Positions 22,449 through 54,818 of a stretch of DNA of 64,000 nucleotides are shown here, in pieces (position 1 is the first letter of the stretch; each line of letters starts with the position of its first letter). Below the pieces are notes generated by a model, which saw only the letters and a program-made list of their open reading frames with translations, had not been told where the DNA came from and did no database searches. Source of the stretch: Gammaproteobacteria bacterium (lineage in GTDB: Bacteria; Pseudomonadota; Gammaproteobacteria; Eutrophobiales; Eutrophobiaceae); the NCBI GenBank assembly GCA_965243205.1, contig CBDEUK010000002.1:1088001-1152000 (forward strand), written 5' to 3'. The position numbers were made by a program, and so were the translations under genes.

Positions 22449-22673
22449 TTATTTCATTTTACGTGCAGCAACTAGACCAGCTACACCAACACCTAATAAT
22501 AACCAAGCAGCTGGCTCTGGAACAGATGGATTACCACCGCCATTTGGATTACCGCCGCCATTTTGCATACCGCCGCCATTTTCATTGCCACCATTGGTAG
22601 CGACACCGGCAATAGTTGCACCAGAAAATCCGAATAAAGACATTAACAATAACAACGCACTTAATTTTTTCAT
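22449..22673 (-). CDS. Minimal PEP-CTERM sorting-domain protein (74 aa)
   Basis: ATG at 22673 with GAGG RBS; signal peptide, NGGG repeats, then VPEP-AAWLLLGVGVAGLVAA-RKMK. Confidence 0.88.
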   Translation of the reverse strand: MKKLSALLLLMSLFGFSGATIAGVATNGGNENGGGMQNGGGNPNGGGNPSVPEPAAWLLLGVGVAGLVAARKMK

Positions 22674-22721
22674 AGCATTTGACCTCAAAATATACGAATT
22701 TAAACCGCCCTGCATGACATT

Positions 22722-23010: not shown

Positions 23011-24732
23011 TTGAAATTTACAGTACCAATGTCTGAAAAAGATCCATCACAATCAAAAAATGCCTTACCCATGGGTTATCAGCTGCATTGGTATACTATT
23101 AAGGATATCTTAGGCCATGGCGGGTTTGGCATCACATATCTTGCTTATGATCAAAACCTTGCCCATGAAGTTGCCATCAAAGAGTACATGCCCTCAGAAT
23201 TATCGGTTAGAGATTCTGATGATCATAGTGTTCATCCCTTAAGTGATCGCAAAAAATCACGTTATGAATGGGGGCTGGAAAGATTCATATCTGAAGCCAG
23301 AACAATTGGGCGCTTTAAACATGCCAATATTATTCGGGTACGCAACGTCTTTGAAGATAATAATACTGCTTACATGGTAATGGATTATGAGGTTGGTGAA
23401 AGTCTACAGGATATATTGACTCGGAAAAAAATACTAAACCAAGATGAATTAATGAGTATGATTTTTCCAATCATTGAAGGAGTGAAATCTATCCATGCCT
23501 CAGGGTTCATCCATCGTGATATTAAACCAGCAAACATTTTTATTCGAACTGGTGGCGAACCTGTTTTACTTGATTTTGGTTCAGCAAGAAAAGCTGTTTC
23601 AAAGCATAAACGTACTATAACCAGTTTATTCTCCAAAGGTTATGCACCGATTGAGCAGTACGAATCCTCAGATGATAACGATACCCAAGGCCCTTGGACT
23701 GATATCTATTCTTTAGGCGCAACTATGTATCGATGCATTTCAGGCATGGCGCCAACTGATGCTATTGACCGTAGTTCTGCAATTATTCATACCGGCCAAG
23801 ACACTTATGTCTCTGCTGTTGAAATTGGAGAAGGCCGATATTCAAAATCGTTACTTGAGGCGATTGACTTCGCTATGAATTTTAAACGCGACGAGCGTCC
23901 TGGCGATATAGCAGAATGGGAAATCGGTTTACATAACCTAGCTCCTCCAATGGGTGATATCACTATTCAAAATAGTATTTTGGAAGTTGAAAATAAAAAT
24001 CGTTTCATGACGGCAAAAAAAGCCGCGACTGAAGGTGATGTCAAAGCCCAAGCAGAATTAGCCTATTACTATGTTAGAGGCGTTGGCACCGAAAAAGATG
24101 ATTCAATGGCATTTAATTGGTATTTCAACGCCGCACAACAAAACAATATTAACTCACAATACAATTTAGGTGTGATGTACGCCAAGGGTCGGGGCGTGAA
24201 GCAAAATTTTGCAGAAGCGTTTCGCTGGTATAAGCGTGCCGCGGAGCAAGGCGATCCAGCTGCACAAGCTACCATCGCTATGATGTGTGAAAAAGGCATC
24301 GGCACTGATAAAAATATGCAAGACGCTGTCAGTTATTATTTGTTAGCAGCGGAACAAGGCAATGTGAATGCACAATATACGTTAGGTACTTGGTTTGCCA
24401 AAGGCACTGGCGTTGAAAAGGATTATCCAAAAGCTTTTTCTTGGTTTCAAAAAGCAGCAGAACAAGGCCACATCAATGCACAACTTAATCTAGGCTATTT
24501 TTACGGTAAAGGTAAAGGCATTGAACGAGATGATAGAAAAGCCTTTGAATGGTTTCAACAAGCAGCTGAGCAAGGCAATTCAAATGCTCAATATAATTTA
24601 GGGGTTATTTATTCCAGAGGACGAGGAATAGAAGTGGATCTGACTAAATCCAGAGAATGGTATCGAAAAGCTGCTGATCAAGGCGACGAAGGTGCGAAAC
24701 AAGCACTTAAAAAATTACCGCCAGACGAATAA
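23011..24732 (+). CDS. Ser/Thr protein kinase fused to six Sel1-like repeats
   Basis: GHGGFG, AIKE, HRDIKPAN, DFG and APIE motifs; six 36-aa SLRs. Start may be the ATG at 23029. Confidence 0.92.
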   Translation: MKFTVPMSEKDPSQSKNALPMGYQLHWYTIKDILGHGGFGITYLAYDQNLAHEVAIKEYMPSELSVRDSDDHSVHPLSDRKKSRYEWGLERFISEARTIGRFKHANIIRVRNVFEDNNTAYMVMDYEVGESLQDILTRKKILNQDELMSMIFPIIEGVKSIHASGFIHRDIKPANIFIRTGGEPVLLDFGSARKAVSKHKRTITSLFSKGYAPIEQYESSDDNDTQGPWTDIYSLGATMYRCISGMAPTDAIDRSSAIIHTGQDTYVSAVEIGEGRYSKSLLEAIDFAMNFKRDERPGDIAEWEIGLHNLAPPMGDITIQNSILEVENKNRFMTAKKAATEGDVKAQAELAYYYVRGVGTEKDDSMAFNWYFNAAQQNNINSQYNLGVMYAKGRGVKQNFAEAFRWYKRAAEQGDPAAQATIAMMCEKGIGTDKNMQDAVSYYLLAAEQGNVNAQYTLGTWFAKGTGVEKDYPKAFSWFQKAAEQGHINAQLNLGYFYGKGKGIERDDRKAFEWFQQAAEQGNSNAQYNLGVIYSRGRGIEVDLTKSREWYRKAADQGDEGAKQALKKLPPDE

Positions 24733-24829
24733 TTTCTTTTTTATATAAAGAAACAAAAAGATTTTTTCTATATATATTTTTTTATTATTTTTTCAAAAAA
24801 TTTAATAACGTTTCCGTCTTTATGACGTC

Positions 24830-25227
24830 ATACTTTTCTTTGATGAGCAAAGAAAAGTATCAAAAGAAAGCTCACCCCGAATGACATAGCCTAAAGGCTT
24901 CCTTCGTCATTCGTTGTCACAACGGGTCGCTTTTACGCGATGTCCTATCGCGAAAAGCTAAGTTTTACTTCCTGTAAAACTTACCCTGTTCAAACTCATT
25001 CCTCAGCATGTCATACGGGTTACTGTAAAGTTTTAATTTCCCGTTGAGACTTGCCGATTGAGGAAGCTGGCGTAGCGGAAAATTCACAGGGATGTGAATT
25101 TTAGCGAAGCGAAACAGGAGGTTTCGACTGAGCGACGTGTTATGACAGATTACTCATGAGGAATTACAAGGCGAACGGGTGTCTTTGTCTTTGGTTACTT
25201 TCTATTGGACAAGCAATAGAAAGTAAC
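24830..25227. repeat. Non-coding palindromic MITE/REPIN-like element
   Basis: Related terminal hairpins in inverted orientation, internal nested stems and four GGA-loop hairpins; lies between convergent genes. Confidence 0.75.
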
Positions 25228-25268
25228 AAACATAAATTTTGAATACTTTTTAAAAAAAGTATTATTAA

Positions 25269-25805
25269 CTACTCTGTAGTTAATTTCTGAAGATCCGCAA
25301 TAATCTCATCACTATGAGACGATGGATTTACCTTACGATAAATCTTCGCCAACTTACCTTGCGGATTGATTATAAAACTATGACGTTTCGCTAATTTTAA
25401 TGGCCCAAGTGACATTAACGAACCATATGATTTAGCAACTGCTCCATCAGCATCGGATAACAGTGTAAACGGTAAACCATGTTTCTCTGCAAATTTTGCA
25501 TGACTTTCAGCATTATCAATACTCACTCCTATAACTTCAGCACCTAATGCTTTTATCTCAATAATGTCATCACGAAAATTACACGCCTCTGTTGTACATC
25601 CTGGTGTGTCATCTTTGGGATAAAAATACAAAACTACCCACTTATCTTTATAATCTATTAATTGGTGTGTTTTTTGGTATTGATCAATTAATGAAAAATC
25701 AGGTGCATCGTCATTAATAGAAAGTTCATTTGCAGATAAGAACTGACTGAAAAAAGTCATCATGATTATTGAGATAAATAATAAATTGAGTTTCGATAAT
25801 TTCAT
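25269..25805 (-). CDS. bcp: Peroxiredoxin, Bcp/PrxQ family, with signal peptide
   Basis: YFYPKDDTPGCTTEAC motif; N-terminal signal sequence. Confidence 0.92.
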   Translation of the reverse strand: MKLSKLNLLFISIIMMTFFSQFLSANELSINDDAPDFSLIDQYQKTHQLIDYKDKWVVLYFYPKDDTPGCTTEACNFRDDIIEIKALGAEVIGVSIDNAESHAKFAEKHGLPFTLLSDADGAVAKSYGSLMSLGPLKLAKRHSFIINPQGKLAKIYRKVNPSSHSDEIIADLQKLTTE

Positions 25806-31087: not shown

Positions 31088-31618
31088 TTAATCCGTTTTC
31101 GAAGCTGATTGCAAACGTTCATAATCAATATACTGTTCCATTTCCTTTTGCGCATAAACCTGTTGATTATGAAAGATGCGTTGTTTTTCAACTAACATTT
31201 TTAAATGCTTTTCAGCTTCTTGATTACCATTCTCATAAGCTACGTAGTACCACTTATAGGCTTCTATATGGTCTTTCGATTCTTTGGCTAACTCTTCTAT
31301 AACTAACGCATAGTTTAATTGAGCACCTGGATGTTTTTGTTTTGCAGCCTTTTCAAACCATATACCCGCTTTTTGTAAATCCCGTTTACCAACCAGACCT
31401 AAATAATGCATTAATCCTAAATAAGCTTGGGCATCGGCCTCGCCAGCTTTTGCACGTGGTTTAAATAACTCATATGCCTTTTCATAATTATGACTCTGAA
31501 AATAATCCTCAGCAGTTTTGTTACTACCTCCACAAGAAGCTAAAGAGACTATTATCAATAGATAGATAGACTGAAATAAACTGTTGAGTTTATTCAGGCT
31601 CATCTTCTTCATCTTCAA
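31088..31618 (-). CDS. Sel1-repeat lipoprotein
   Basis: Lipobox LASC; AQAYLGLMHY...WFEKAAKQ repeats; overlaps the upstream gene. Confidence 0.85.
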   Translation of the reverse strand: MKMKKMSLNKLNSLFQSIYLLIIVSLASCGGSNKTAEDYFQSHNYEKAYELFKPRAKAGEADAQAYLGLMHYLGLVGKRDLQKAGIWFEKAAKQKHPGAQLNYALVIEELAKESKDHIEAYKWYYVAYENGNQEAEKHLKMLVEKQRIFHNQQVYAQKEMEQYIDYERLQSASKTD

Positions 31619-33796: not shown

Positions 33797-33844
33797 AATA
33801 CAAACAGTCTAAATTATTTTTATAAAAAATACTTTTAATTTATC

Positions 33845-33880
33845 TGTTCATTTTCTTTACTTGTCCAAAGAAAATGAACA
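33845..33880. repeat. Solo hairpin related to the termini of the 24830-25227 element
   Basis: TGTTCATTTTCTTT-ACTTGTCC-AAAGAAAATGAACA; shares the CTTGTC loop with the right terminus. Confidence 0.6.
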
Positions 33881-33935
33881 AATAAATTTTAAATAAAATA
33901 TATTAATAAGAATCCCTCTTAATTTAAAAACCGTT

Positions 33936-53102: not shown

Positions 53103-54818
53103 TTATTTATTTGATAATAAAATCAATATTATAACGAATAATAAAAACGATAAGCCTTGCCAAAATCGAACAGGATTACGCTGCATTAGTGGACGATTAT
53201 CTTTTACAGAAAACTCAGGATTGGGTTGTCGAAAATCATACAAAAACTCAGAAAGTTCGCCATAGCGTTTTTTAGGATCGGGATCGATAGCTTTCTTAAT
53301 TGTCATGTCAATCCAATGTGGAATATCAGGACGATGATCTTTAACTGAACGATACTGTAACTTTTTAACAAAACTATCCGTCTTCCAGTTATCAGGCATT
53401 TCTCCATACGGCAACTCACCCGATAACATCTCGTAAATAATCACTCCCAAAGAATAAATATCTGATCGGTTAGTCCCTGGTTGATCATTAACGTATTCAG
53501 GTGCTGTATAATTTTTGGTTCCTAATAAATTCTGTTGTGTAATCGGCGTTGTTATTTCTGAAATACCTGCAACTTTAGCCGAACCAAAATCTACAAGCTT
53601 CACAGTTCCTTTACCATCAAGCATGATATTTTCGGGTTTAAGATCTTGATGCAGCATTTCTAAACGATGAAACGCTTGCAAACCTTTTGCAATTTGTTCA
53701 ACCAATAAACGTATTTCTTCGATACTTGGTTTAGGATGATCATTCATCCATTGTTTAATGGTATTTCCTTCCAAATATTCACTGATATGATATAAAAAAC
53801 GTCGTCTACGAGTTGGTTCATACACTTTTACGACATGTGGATTAACAATACGTCTCCCTATCCATTCTTCACGAATAAAACGATCAATATAAGCAGGATC
53901 ATCTTCATAGTTAACTGACGGAGTTTTTATCGCAACTTTTAAACCTGTTTCAGTATCTATCGCCAAATATAACTGTGAACGGTTACTTGTATGTAACTCA
54001 CGGATAATTTTATAACCATCTAAATTCACACCTTCAGATAGTTCAGGTGGAAACGGCAACTCCGTTATTTGTTGATAGATGTCATCAGGATTTTGATTGG
54101 GTATTTGAGTAACTTCTAAAATAAGACACGTTAAATTATCAATACTGCCATTTTCCTTAGCTTGGTACACCATGACTTCAGCAGCTTTAGGTAAATTCGT
54201 TCGACTGTCTTGAATAATCTTAACTATTTCATCTTCTGATAAGTATTCATGTACACCGTCCGTCGTTAATAAATAAATATCATTCTGTTCAATGCTTTCT
54301 TTACTGTAATCAATTTGCAAATGAGTATCTGCACCCATTGCACGACTCAAATAACTTCTATCGTTTGCAACCCAAGTTTTATGATCCGTTGTTAATAATG
54401 TGAGATAACCTTGGCGCAAACGATAAATTCGACTGTCACCAATATGAATCACATGACAAGTTGTTGATTTTAATACAAGAGAACTAAACGTCGTGACCAA
54501 ACCACGGTGTTTTTGTCGTTCAACCTTACCTTGGTTATATAACCAATTGTTTAGTGCAGTTAAAACTTGTTGTGATGATTTTTTGACTGACCAGGTTTCT
54601 GGGGTACTAAAATAATCAGCTAAAAATCCATTGATACATGCATGACTGGCTACTTTGCTGTGATCACTAGTACTAATACCATCAGCAATCGCAACAGCAA
54701 CACCTTTCGTTTCGATTAAATTATCTTCTGGTTGAAAATAACCACAACAATCTTGATTACGTTCTTTAACACCTTTATCAGAAAATTCACCAACGGAGAT
54801 GGATAACTGTTTCGTCAT
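53103..54818 (-). CDS. Bifunctional PP2C phosphatase / Ser-Thr kinase with C-terminal TM helix
   Basis: RNQD, ADG, HIGDSR, TDG and DN (PP2C); AIK, HQDLKPEN, DFG and APE (kinase). Confidence 0.92.
   Translation of the reverse strand: MTKQLSISVGEFSDKGVKERNQDCCGYFQPEDNLIETKGVAVAIADGISTSDHSKVASHACINGFLADYFSTPETWSVKKSSQQVLTALNNWLYNQGKVERQKHRGLVTTFSSLVLKSTTCHVIHIGDSRIYRLRQGYLTLLTTDHKTWVANDRSYLSRAMGADTHLQIDYSKESIEQNDIYLLTTDGVHEYLSEDEIVKIIQDSRTNLPKAAEVMVYQAKENGSIDNLTCLILEVTQIPNQNPDDIYQQITELPFPPELSEGVNLDGYKIIRELHTSNRSQLYLAIDTETGLKVAIKTPSVNYEDDPAYIDRFIREEWIGRRIVNPHVVKVYEPTRRRRFLYHISEYLEGNTIKQWMNDHPKPSIEEIRLLVEQIAKGLQAFHRLEMLHQDLKPENIMLDGKGTVKLVDFGSAKVAGISEITTPITQQNLLGTKNYTAPEYVNDQPGTNRSDIYSLGVIIYEMLSGELPYGEMPDNWKTDSFVKKLQYRSVKDHRPDIPHWIDMTIKKAIDPDPKKRYGELSEFLYDFRQPNPEFSVKDNRPLMQRNPVRFWQGLSFLLFVIILILLSNK

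Follow-up and report, generated by a model that had tools for sequence, protein, structure and literature searches.

What kind of element occupies the space between two convergent genes of an uncultured gammaproteobacterium, and why does it present GGA-bearing hairpin loops on both of its strands? The element lies at 24830-25227 of a 64-kb stretch of DNA, the whole of which we call the window. To its left is a Ser/Thr kinase gene with Sel1 repeats (plus strand, ending at 24732), and to its right a Bcp peroxiredoxin gene (minus strand, ending at 25269), placing the element 97 nt and 41 nt past their respective stop codons. Ahead of the element, at 24742-24800, the kinase gene carries an AU hairpin with a long run of T after it. 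A sequence-only reading had described the locus as a single two-armed, transposon-like element with inverted terminal hairpins, offering paired CsrA sites to transcripts entering from either side. Every feature quoted in that reading was recovered where it had been placed, including the convergent arrangement of the flanking genes. The description of the element as GC-rich is correct relative to its immediate flanks (42% vs 28-35%), but not relative to the neighbouring genes (40-44%). The interpretation of these features has changed: the element consists of two homologous units, which probably belong, in a broad sense, to the TwoAYGGAY family of structured RNAs.

Two homologous units in divergent orientation

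The two units are each approximately 190 nt long and stand back to back. The left unit (24830-25019) occupies the minus strand, where it is read from 25019 to 24830; the right unit (25040-25227) has the same architecture and is on the plus strand. Their 5' ends are separated by an AT-rich spacer of 20 nt (25020-25039). Each unit is built from a basal stem, a pair of neighbouring hairpins that present GGA in their loops, another 2-4 GGA motifs and a module at the 3' end. The long-range stems that had been proposed to close each arm were confirmed: the 5' strand of the left basal stem (25008-25019, minus strand) pairs with its 3' strand (24876-24887) over 12 nt at 92% complementarity, a pairing that is present in the minimum free energy (MFE) fold, and the right basal stem is formed by 25040-25045 with 25174-25179 on the plus strand. 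All four GGA-loop hairpins are likewise in place, two on the minus strand (24960-24982, with loop CAGGAAG, and 24936-24952, with loop AGGAC) and two on the plus strand (25079-25102, with AGGGAU in the loop, and 25110-25126, with loop CAGGAGG). The terminal hairpins form 13 of 13 pairs on the left (24830-24860) and 14 pairs on the right (25194-25227).

Although the arms had been thought to share little sequence, they align with 107 identical positions of 196 (55%), and their divergence is concordant with folding. The consensus fold of both arms (RNAalifold) contains 47 pairs, 16 of which are changed on both sides. Three of nine pairs in the first GGA hairpin, and three of six core pairs in the second, are compensated between the arms while the GGA of each loop is retained, so the expectation that GGA loops stay constant while stems covary is borne out between the two arms by compensatory substitutions. 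Survival of the GGA loops through this turnover of their stems argues for selection on the loops. The hairpin loops are also real and enriched. A census of perfect hairpins (stem of at least 6, loop of 4-9) across both strands of the window returned 356, of which 18 carry a GGA loop; the 400-bp element accounts for four of these 18, where 0.11 would be expected (Poisson P ~6e-6).

Each arm is one-stranded in its motif content. The plus strand of the left arm contains no GGA and four TCC, and all left GGA motifs are therefore on the minus strand; the plus strand of the right arm contains six GGA and one TCC. Sense-strand GGA thus number 4 and 6 in the two units, vs 0 and 1 on the antisense strand. 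GGA loops occur on both strands of the element as the automatic outcome of duplicating a one-stranded unit in inverse orientation, and not by an 'orientation-independent' design. Nor is the element a single two-armed one with terminal inverted repeats, the repeating unit being one arm (body, linker and hairpin).

Both units fold more stably than shuffled sequences. The left unit reaches -64.5 kcal/mol (z -4.84) and the right unit -66.1 kcal/mol (z -4.95), values equalled by none of 200 shuffles in either case; a 408-nt region spanning the element reaches -145.1 kcal/mol on the plus strand (z -8.44) and -136.4 kcal/mol on the minus strand (z -7.33), with none of 100 shuffles equal. The sense strand of the right unit is 14 kcal/mol more stable than its antisense, and sense exceeded antisense in all ten units compared. 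G.U pairs in the window arms do not favour the sense strand (3 vs 3 and 3 vs 4, sense vs antisense). A scan of the 64-kb window for a further full copy of the unit found none, searches of a phage collection and of E. coli genomes gave no match, and a scan of genome contigs with Bcp as query returned no close relative among 80 loci (identity at most 59%). An 8,775-bp contig from one of the closest relatives encodes Bcp and TypA at 86% and 97% identity, respectively.

The 3' module and its predicted pseudoknot

The 3' module combines a U-rich linker with an AU hairpin of 13-14 bp, and our finding is that it is predicted to form an H-type pseudoknot with a covarying loop pairing. The bases immediately 5' of the linker complement the loop of the AU hairpin, over 5 nt in the left arm and 4 nt in the right. 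In the left module (24830-24874, minus strand) the first stem strand, S1, is at 24871-24874, the linker, L1, at 24861-24870 and the hairpin, S2, at 24830-24860, with loop bases 24844-24847 pairing with S1; in the right module (25180-25227, plus strand) the corresponding positions are 25180-25183, 25184-25193 and 25194-25227, with loop bases 25208-25211 as the partner of S1. Across modules the loop pairing changes in concert (UGAG:CUCA, UGUC:GACA, UGCC:GGCA, GCUGC:GCAGC, GCCGC:GCGGC). Register shifts between rows of the MAFFT alignment made column-wise pair counting unusable, and covariation was assessed by an alignment-free permutation test: over ten modules, the sum of pairings of each module with its own loop was 40, a value matched by 8 of 20,000 permutations and by none of 5,000 shuffles. 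The S2 stems of 17 modules contain seven G.U pairs vs one C.A mismatch.

The order of parts in the module invites a further comparison. Major-groove U.A-U triples are a feature of the telomerase RNA pseudoknot and the SAM-II riboswitch, and triple helices occur in ENE/MALAT1. The module resembles these types in its succession of S1, a U-rich L1, a U-rich S2 strand, a loop-borne partner of S1 and an A-rich S2 strand; the resemblance is a predicted one, and the module differs in that its S2 is unusually long (13-14 bp). Starting from the junction, L1 complements the S2 purine arm in parallel orientation, with C opposite G, and the linker places a G opposite inverted U-A or G.U pairs of the stem. 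Taken as a parallel third strand, the linker matches the purine arm at 88 of 120 positions, vs 92 of 120 for a rival Watson-Crick helix; both counts exceed all of 2,000 shuffles and counting does not separate them. A U.A-U / C+.G-C triplex may form in the module, a proposal that we regard as more doubtful than not. In the predicted pseudoknot itself, the pairing of S1 with the loop of the AU hairpin would force the linker into the major groove of the stem.

The module is widely conserved outside the window. BLAST against 7.3 Gb of sequence aligned the left module to Pseudoalteromonas chromids (86% over 59 nt, E 1e-6), and a BLAST match of the right module was found on pILYOP01 of Ilyobacter polytropus (90% over 52 nt, E 1e-7), such that conservation at 86-90% spans Gammaproteobacteria and Fusobacteriota; the hairpin of the module also occurs in Betaproteobacteria, with 85-87.5% identity in Burkholderiaceae (Caballeronia/Burkholderia). 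A model designated R1 scored the left module at 60.4 bits, although the left module is itself in the R1 training set. In other genomes the module is found at 7 to 19 places per record and in several arrangements: head-to-head units in Caballeronia and Ralstonia, as in the window, tail-to-tail units and alternating arrays in Pseudoalteromonas, and a single unit at the one Ilyobacter locus examined. The arms of Caballeronia doublets are 88% complementary over 93 nt. Some units lie between co-directional genes (aceF-lpdA) and others in arrays far from gene ends. Within the window, a solo module-like hairpin is present at 33838-33886, just past dnaJ and on the same strand as that gene.

Units in Burkholderiaceae and Ilyobacter possess the module and are not enriched for GGA, which implies that the core function of the module-bearing family may not be CsrA binding. 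In Burkholderiaceae, the Rfam family Bp1_Cand684_SIPHT (RF02421) has its start within the 3' arm of this AU hairpin and extends outward from there; the candidate sRNA is listed as validated by RT-PCR (PMC3521395). The window differs in having no RF02421 match and no counterpart of the GC-rich hairpin found after the module in Burkholderiaceae.

Relationship to TwoAYGGAY RNAs and CsrA sponges

The TwoAYGGAY description (RF01731) agrees with the MFE folds of both arms and with their RNAalifold consensus, in that two sequential GGA-loop hairpins are enclosed by a basal stem. We consider it probable that the units belong to this family in the broad sense, and we favour, with more reserve, the narrower identification of the element as a divergent head-to-head doublet of paralogous TwoAYGGAY-type units in their extended Pseudomonadota form. 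According to a 2026 preprint (bioRxiv 10.64898/2026.09.22.753630), Pseudomonadota TwoAYGGAY RNAs combine a long basal stem with additional hairpins and a pseudoknot at the 3' end; median copy number per genome is 11-23 across Pseudomonas species groups other than P. aeruginosa; and 2,164 of 3,166 doublets (68.4%) are divergent. The window units are similarly paired as a divergent doublet with their 5' ends facing, and a pseudoknot is predicted after the basal stem, which we assume to be the one of the preprint. The main text of Weinberg et al. 2010 presents TwoAYGGAY as a table row only.

A connection to the family comes from Pseudoalteromonas, where the module homologous to ours terminates bona fide RF01731 matches. 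In P. piscicida it closes each of seven alternating RF01731 matches in a non-coding array of 2.9 kb, three of which exceed the 43-bit gathering score (65.1, 65.1 and 51.8 bits), and in Pseudoalteromonas sp. NC201 an RF01731 match of 41.1 bits lies within a module-bearing unit; scores of the Pseudoalteromonas units akin to the left module range from 38.5 to 65.1 bits. Homology with the window units is limited to the 3' ~75 nt, the bodies being unalignable and the joint alignment poor elsewhere.

Certain differences from the family remain. The window contains no Rfam match at gathering level, and RF01731 itself gave no match to 24600-25400 up to E 10 (gathering threshold 43 bits). The window loops, CAGGAAG, AGGAC, CAGGGAUG and CAGGAGG, keep GGA but have a purine before it instead of the pyrimidine of AYGGAY, and read A(C/U)AGGA or AGGGA (ANGGA). 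The 5' ends are 20 nt apart, vs a median of 249 bp in Pseudomonas doublets (bioRxiv 10.64898/2026.09.22.753630). Arrays of the 5-6-nt repeat GMTBT(T) were not evident in the 200 nt upstream of each unit, which contain one and zero motifs vs a null mean of 0.93. Other weak Rfam matches (STnc300, Bacillaceae-1, 6A, InvR and others, E 0.3-7) were treated as chance. The 6A RNA match (19.6 bits, E 0.77) reflects a 17-nt run common with the antisense of the left module and absent at every other module checked; the literature retrieved for 6A RNA dealt with m6A or unrelated subjects only, and Weinberg 2017 is without '6A' or CsrA text.

Titration of CsrA by the units is a related proposal, to which we give a little less than even odds. 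As in the CsrB/RsmX/RsmY/RsmZ RNAs (clan CL00106), there are 4-6 GGA motifs in each unit of ~190 nt, and hairpin loops present two of these. One of the window loops reads ACAGGGAUGU, which we take to be close to a SELEX-type CsrA site. The units differ from these RNAs in that no model of the clan reaches threshold, the best being PrrB_RsmZ at 15.5 bits vs a cut-off of 44 bits. Inspection by eye revealed no upstream box of the GacA/UvrY type. With respect to csrA itself, a six-frame search of the window with a CsrA motif found no gene, and no CsrA family member was present among 52 window ORFs scanned against Pfam.

Signals for transcription were sought around the element. A consensus sigma-70 scan identified no outward promoter, the spacer at 25020-25039 included, its sole promoter-like site being inside the right arm and pointing left. 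A scan for G+C-rich intrinsic terminators returned no sites, and neither terminal hairpin is followed by a U-tract on either strand. We had entertained two divergent classical Rsm genes with terminators; since neither hairpin precedes a U-tract, the terminator part of that idea was dropped. Under the TwoAYGGAY-doublet reading, transcription would run outward, on the minus strand for the left unit and on the plus strand for the right one, and the GGA sites of each unit would titrate CsrA/RsmA dimers in the manner of CsrB/RsmZ-type sponges. The 3' pseudoknot, possibly with the U.A-U / C+.G-C triplex, might protect the 3' end from exonucleases, and the doublet itself would have originated by inverted duplication or by the spread typical of the TwoAYGGAY family.

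Alternative explanations and significance

The earlier proposal of a mobile family of CsrA sites is upheld insofar as the units belong to a repeated family, for which the preprint independently proposes Csr/Rsm sponging and mobile-like expansion (bioRxiv 10.64898/2026.09.22.753630); neither a transposase nor a target-site duplication was found in the window. Mobility might instead operate on the DNA, the element being a foldback or MITE-like element whose inverted modules are ends recognised, as duplex or as single-stranded hairpins, by some transposase or nuclease, with the GGA loops either incidental or themselves recognition sites. Like REPINs and MITEs, the element is intergenic, has inverted hairpin-bearing modules at both ends and belongs to a family that other genomes carry in many copies (7 to 19 places in a record); the arms of Caballeronia doublets are strongly complementary, the module, like the ends of IS families, keeps its sequence across phyla, and the mobile-like expansion noted in the preprint would suit this explanation as well. 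However, single units, tail-to-tail pairs and alternating arrays are found as well, and the doublet is therefore not the unit. The window arms are only 55% identical, yet compensatory changes have kept their internal hairpins intact, which points to selection on folding after duplication, while G.U pairs and the energy bias between sense and antisense favour a one-stranded, RNA-like fold. Moreover, the longest word common to the flanks is 4-6 nt of A/T, giving no target-site duplication, and a Pfam scan of 47 window ORFs showed no transposase, RAYT or reverse transcriptase. We consequently judge a DNA-level element unlikely.

Less likely still is the 3'-UTR role proposed in the sequence-only reading, by which read-through from the kinase gene or bcp would cross one arm antisense and the other sense, and so gain GGA hairpins and a protective 3' structure. 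The location in a convergent intergenic space, 97 nt and 41 nt past the two stop codons, would suit such a cis-acting cassette, as would the failure of the promoter scan to find a promoter of its own and the solo hairpin on the dnaJ strand; against it, an AU hairpin and T run that belong to the kinase gene come before the element, no U-tract follows the hairpins on either strand, and in other genomes units lie between co-directional genes or in arrays distant from gene ends. A modular RNA scaffold, in which the 3' pseudoknot is the functional core (protein-bound, engaged in RNA-mediated spread or otherwise employed) and the GGA hairpins are lineage-specific cargo, seems to us about as improbable as the DNA-level element. 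The module is far better conserved (86-90%, with 85-87.5% for the hairpin in Betaproteobacteria) than the bodies, which are unalignable and in Burkholderiaceae and Ilyobacter show no GGA enrichment, and the Burkholderiaceae flank beyond the module is the candidate sRNA Bp1_Cand684, listed as detected by RT-PCR (PMC3521395). Yet no partner protein is known or was seen, and the conservation of GGA loops under stem turnover in the window and in Pseudoalteromonas argues that the loops matter there. The scaffold overlaps with the TwoAYGGAY-doublet explanation and does not exclude it. A broader version, improbable in our estimation but less so than the scaffold as such, would make the module a bacterial triple-helix pseudoknot that caps spreading structured RNAs beyond TwoAYGGAY, in Burkholderiaceae and Fusobacteriota, with lineage-specific cargo hairpins that in Gammaproteobacteria bear CsrA-type GGA loops.

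TwoAYGGAY RNAs have been catalogued since 2010 with no demonstrated function, and the preprint shows them to be abundant, with a variable copy number and an odd pairing of units (bioRxiv 10.64898/2026.09.22.753630). To these, the window would add a doublet, diverged and missed by the Rfam model, from an uncultured gammaproteobacterium. The common 3' module, with its predicted pseudoknot pairing that covaries and its conservation from Pseudomonadota to a fusobacterium, provides a handle on the core of the family.

Two homologous units in inverted orientation

The element (window 24830-25227) sits between the stop codons of two genes that both face it, a plus-strand gene encoding a Ser/Thr kinase fused to Sel1 repeats (23011-24732) and a minus-strand gene for a Bcp-type peroxiredoxin (25269-25805). 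The sequence-only reading described it as more GC-rich than its flanks, which is true of the surrounding AT-rich spacers, although its GC content (42%) is equal to that of the neighbouring genes. The hairpins and long-range stems that it quoted were all confirmed in place. When compared with dinucleotide shuffles, a 408-nt stretch folds with z scores of -8.44 and -7.33 on the two strands, and none of 100 shuffles folded as well on either. GGA occurs in the loops of 18 of the 356 perfect hairpins (stem of at least 6, loop of 4-9) on both strands of the entire window, and four of these 18 fall inside the 400-bp element, where 0.11 are expected.

The strand bias of GGA flips at the centre of the element; on the plus strand, the left half contains no GGA and four TCC, and the right half six GGA and one TCC. 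Contrary to the claim that the arms share little sequence, the left half (24830-25019, minus strand) and the right half (25040-25227, plus strand) are identical at 107 of 196 aligned positions, and their common consensus fold has 47 pairs, 16 of them changed on both sides. Within the two GGA hairpins, 3/9 and 3/6 pairs are compensated between halves and the loops stay GGA, in agreement with the expectation that loops would be kept while stems covary. Folded separately, the halves reach -64.5 and -66.1 kcal/mol (z about -4.9), which none of 200 shuffles matched. Together, the strand-bias flip, the alignment and the separate folding argue for an inverted duplication of a unit of approximately 190 nt. 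Hence, what had been taken for a single transposon-like element with inverted ends is better described as a divergent doublet of one-armed units, and GGA loops on both strands, previously read as design, as a by-product of duplicating a one-stranded unit in inverted orientation. In each unit, a basal stem of 12 pairs with one mismatch (left) or six pairs (right) encloses two adjacent GGA-loop hairpins; the unit also contains further GGA in less structured stretches, and continues 3' with a pyrimidine-rich linker and a 13-14-bp AU hairpin.

A consensus scan found no outward promoter or terminator at the element, and no U-tract follows either of its AU hairpins. Upstream of it, at 24742-24800, an AU hairpin (arms 24742-24756 and 24762-24776) and the long T-rich run behind it probably form the terminator belonging to the kinase gene. 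The gene content of the window is that of an ordinary housekeeping chromosome, and the 52 ORFs scanned against Pfam include no csrA, gacA, reverse transcriptase or transposase, the last being a gene that the sequence-only reading advised looking for. The window is also dotted with eukaryote-like signalling and repeat proteins, namely the kinase-Sel1 fusion itself, a PP2C-kinase fusion (53103-54818), a small Sel1 protein (31088-31618) with an FHA protein beside it and, at 22449-22715, a PEP-CTERM protein.

A putative pseudoknot at the 3' end

Across 17 modules compared, the loop of the AU hairpin is complementary to four or five bases directly 5' of the U-rich linker, and the pairing covaries: UGAG:CUCA in the left arm, UGUC:GACA in the right, UGCC:GGCA in Ilyobacter and Pseudoalteromonas type B, GCUGC:GCAGC in Caballeronia and GCCGC:GCGGC in Paraburkholderia, with three pairs in Ralstonia and Pseudoalteromonas type A and no convincing pairing in the B. 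cepacia module. Over ten representatives, own-loop complementarity summed to 40, a value reached by 8 of 20,000 permutations of the loops among the upstream segments and by none of 5,000 upstream-segment shuffles. From its sequence, we interpret the module as an H-type pseudoknot, presumably the one predicted in a preprint of September 2026 (bioRxiv 10.64898/2026.09.22.753630).

Such a structure could form in RNA or, alternatively, in single-stranded DNA. If the sense strand is defined as the bearer of GGA loops and U-rich linker, all ten units, drawn from five taxa, have the lower minimum free energy on it, with margins of 0.5 to 14 kcal/mol. G.U pairs are commoner there in 8/10 units, the exceptions being the two window arms (3 vs 3 and 3 vs 4), and the AU-hairpin stems of the 17 modules contain seven G.U pairs against one C.A mismatch. 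The energy bias and the G.U pairs favour a model in which one strand folds, as RNA.

The pseudoknot topology would set the linker within the AU stem's major groove, parallel to its purine arm from the junction. Read in this direction, linker and purine arm are Hoogsteen complements; in the left arm, UUUCUUUU stands opposite AAAGAAAA, and the relation recurs in Pseudoalteromonas B, B. cepacia and one Ralstonia arm, in all of which, as in the left arm, the 5' arm mirrors the linker rather than repeating it directly. In the right arm and Pseudoalteromonas A, a linker G is opposite the sole U position of the purine arm. A triplex would account for the 88/120 parallel matches and a switch helix, in which the linker pairs in antiparallel Watson-Crick fashion, for the 92/120 antiparallel ones; both counts exceed all 2,000 shuffles and cannot decide between the two, so the triplex is offered as a hypothesis.

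Relatives of the module

The Rfam match that had been looked for was absent from the window at gathering level, and E-value mode returned weak matches only, the best from the Csr clan being PrrB_RsmZ (15.5 bits; left arm, minus strand). A match to 6A RNA (RF02925) at 24832-24880, plus strand (19.6 bits against a cut-off of 41.2, E 0.77), contains a 17-nt run equal to the model consensus, antisense of the left module; this link was rejected, being weak and absent at other modules.

In BLAST searches of PLSDB, the left linker and hairpin matched chromids of Pseudoalteromonas sp. NC201 and P. piscicida (86% over 59 nt, E 1e-6; 3-4 places each), and the right matched Ilyobacter polytropus pILYOP01 (90% over 52 nt, E 1e-7; seven places). 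Matches to the hairpin lay at up to 17 and 19 places per record on chromids of Caballeronia and Burkholderia, and others on Paraburkholderia and B. cepacia-complex replicons; a Ralstonia replicon was matched by a Pseudoalteromonas unit. A 281-nt Ilyobacter unit is present at 12 places within its own record, and other taxa match it in its module only. The idea of a repeated element is upheld for the module, at up to 19 places per record in other genomes. Nothing in the phage and E. coli genome collections matched the element ends. A crude module finder, applied to 88 sources (1.02 Mb, including 80 unrelated Bcp loci), was positive only in the window and the fetched relative loci, with one spurious hit among the 80. 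A covariance model built from nine module sequences, both window arms among them, recovers those arms by construction and finds one untrained window site (33838-33886, minus strand, 31 bits, E 9.4e-6). Here, just after dnaJ and on the same strand, an AU-rich hairpin with a perfect stem of 14 bp stands alone; its loop holds GGACAAG, resembling that of the right arm, and it has no loop partner or C-bearing linker upstream.

Head-to-head doublets measuring 480-600 bp and bearing the same AT-rich module occur in high-GC Burkholderiaceae, in Caballeronia sp. NK8 (locus L083, 1979-2585; arms 88% complementary over 93 nt), Ralstonia sp. RRA.1 (L088, 1208-1684) and Paraburkholderia (L089, 1198-1745); their bodies lack GGA enrichment. 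Bp1_Cand684_SIPHT (RF02421) has 14 matches in loci L083-L085 and L089-L093, three above the 44-bit cut-off (118.8, 92.9 and 51.3 bits). As it starts within the AU hairpin's 3' arm and runs outward over a GC-rich hairpin, this 'sRNA' family seems to be the flank of the repeated module described here.

Relationship to TwoAYGGAY RNAs

A 2.9-kb inter-ORF stretch of P. piscicida chromid NZ_CP074588.1 (locus L086, 19995-22953) contains seven matches to TwoAYGGAY RNA (RF01731, clan CsrB) on alternating strands, scoring 65.1, 65.1, 51.8, 42.8, 41.5, 41.1 and 38.5 bits, three of the seven above the 43-bit cut-off. Two unit types alternate and every unit is closed by the linker and AU hairpin that also end the window units. 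In those fully read, a long basal stem encloses two AUGGAU-loop hairpins, and its 3' strand is followed by this module; further AUGGAU-loop hairpins lie downstream of some units. NC201 has two tail-to-tail units, one with a 41.1-bit RF01731 match.

Its original description lists TwoAYGGAY as a probable RNA without a cis-regulatory role, with human gut, gamma-Proteobacteria and Clostridiales as its sources. The preprint (10.64898/2026.09.22.753630) reports medians of 11-23 copies per genome, and up to 202, in Pseudomonas groups outside P. aeruginosa, frequent doublets in Pseudomonadota (68.4% divergent, 2,164/3,166; median spacing 249 bp) and short pentamer arrays upstream; multivalent Csr/Rsm sponging and mobile-element-like expansion are proposals of its authors. 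The window element resembles that picture in being a divergent doublet, but it is missed by the RF01731 model, its loops read ANGGA or AGGGA where the family has AYGGAY, its units' 5' ends are 20 nt apart, against the 249-bp median reported there, and upstream pentamer arrays are absent. The bodies of the Pseudoalteromonas and window units are unalignable.

Most likely, the element consists of two TwoAYGGAY-like structured RNAs, each with several GGA sites and a conserved terminal pseudoknot. The sequence-only reading was right to recognize CsrA-type loops in a repeated and perhaps mobile family, although it misread the architecture. The GGA sites would titrate CsrA and the pseudoknot would protect the 3' end of the RNA. 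Since Burkholderiaceae and Ilyobacter keep the module on bodies that are not GGA-rich, the core of the family may lie in the 3' module and not in the CsrA-type loops.
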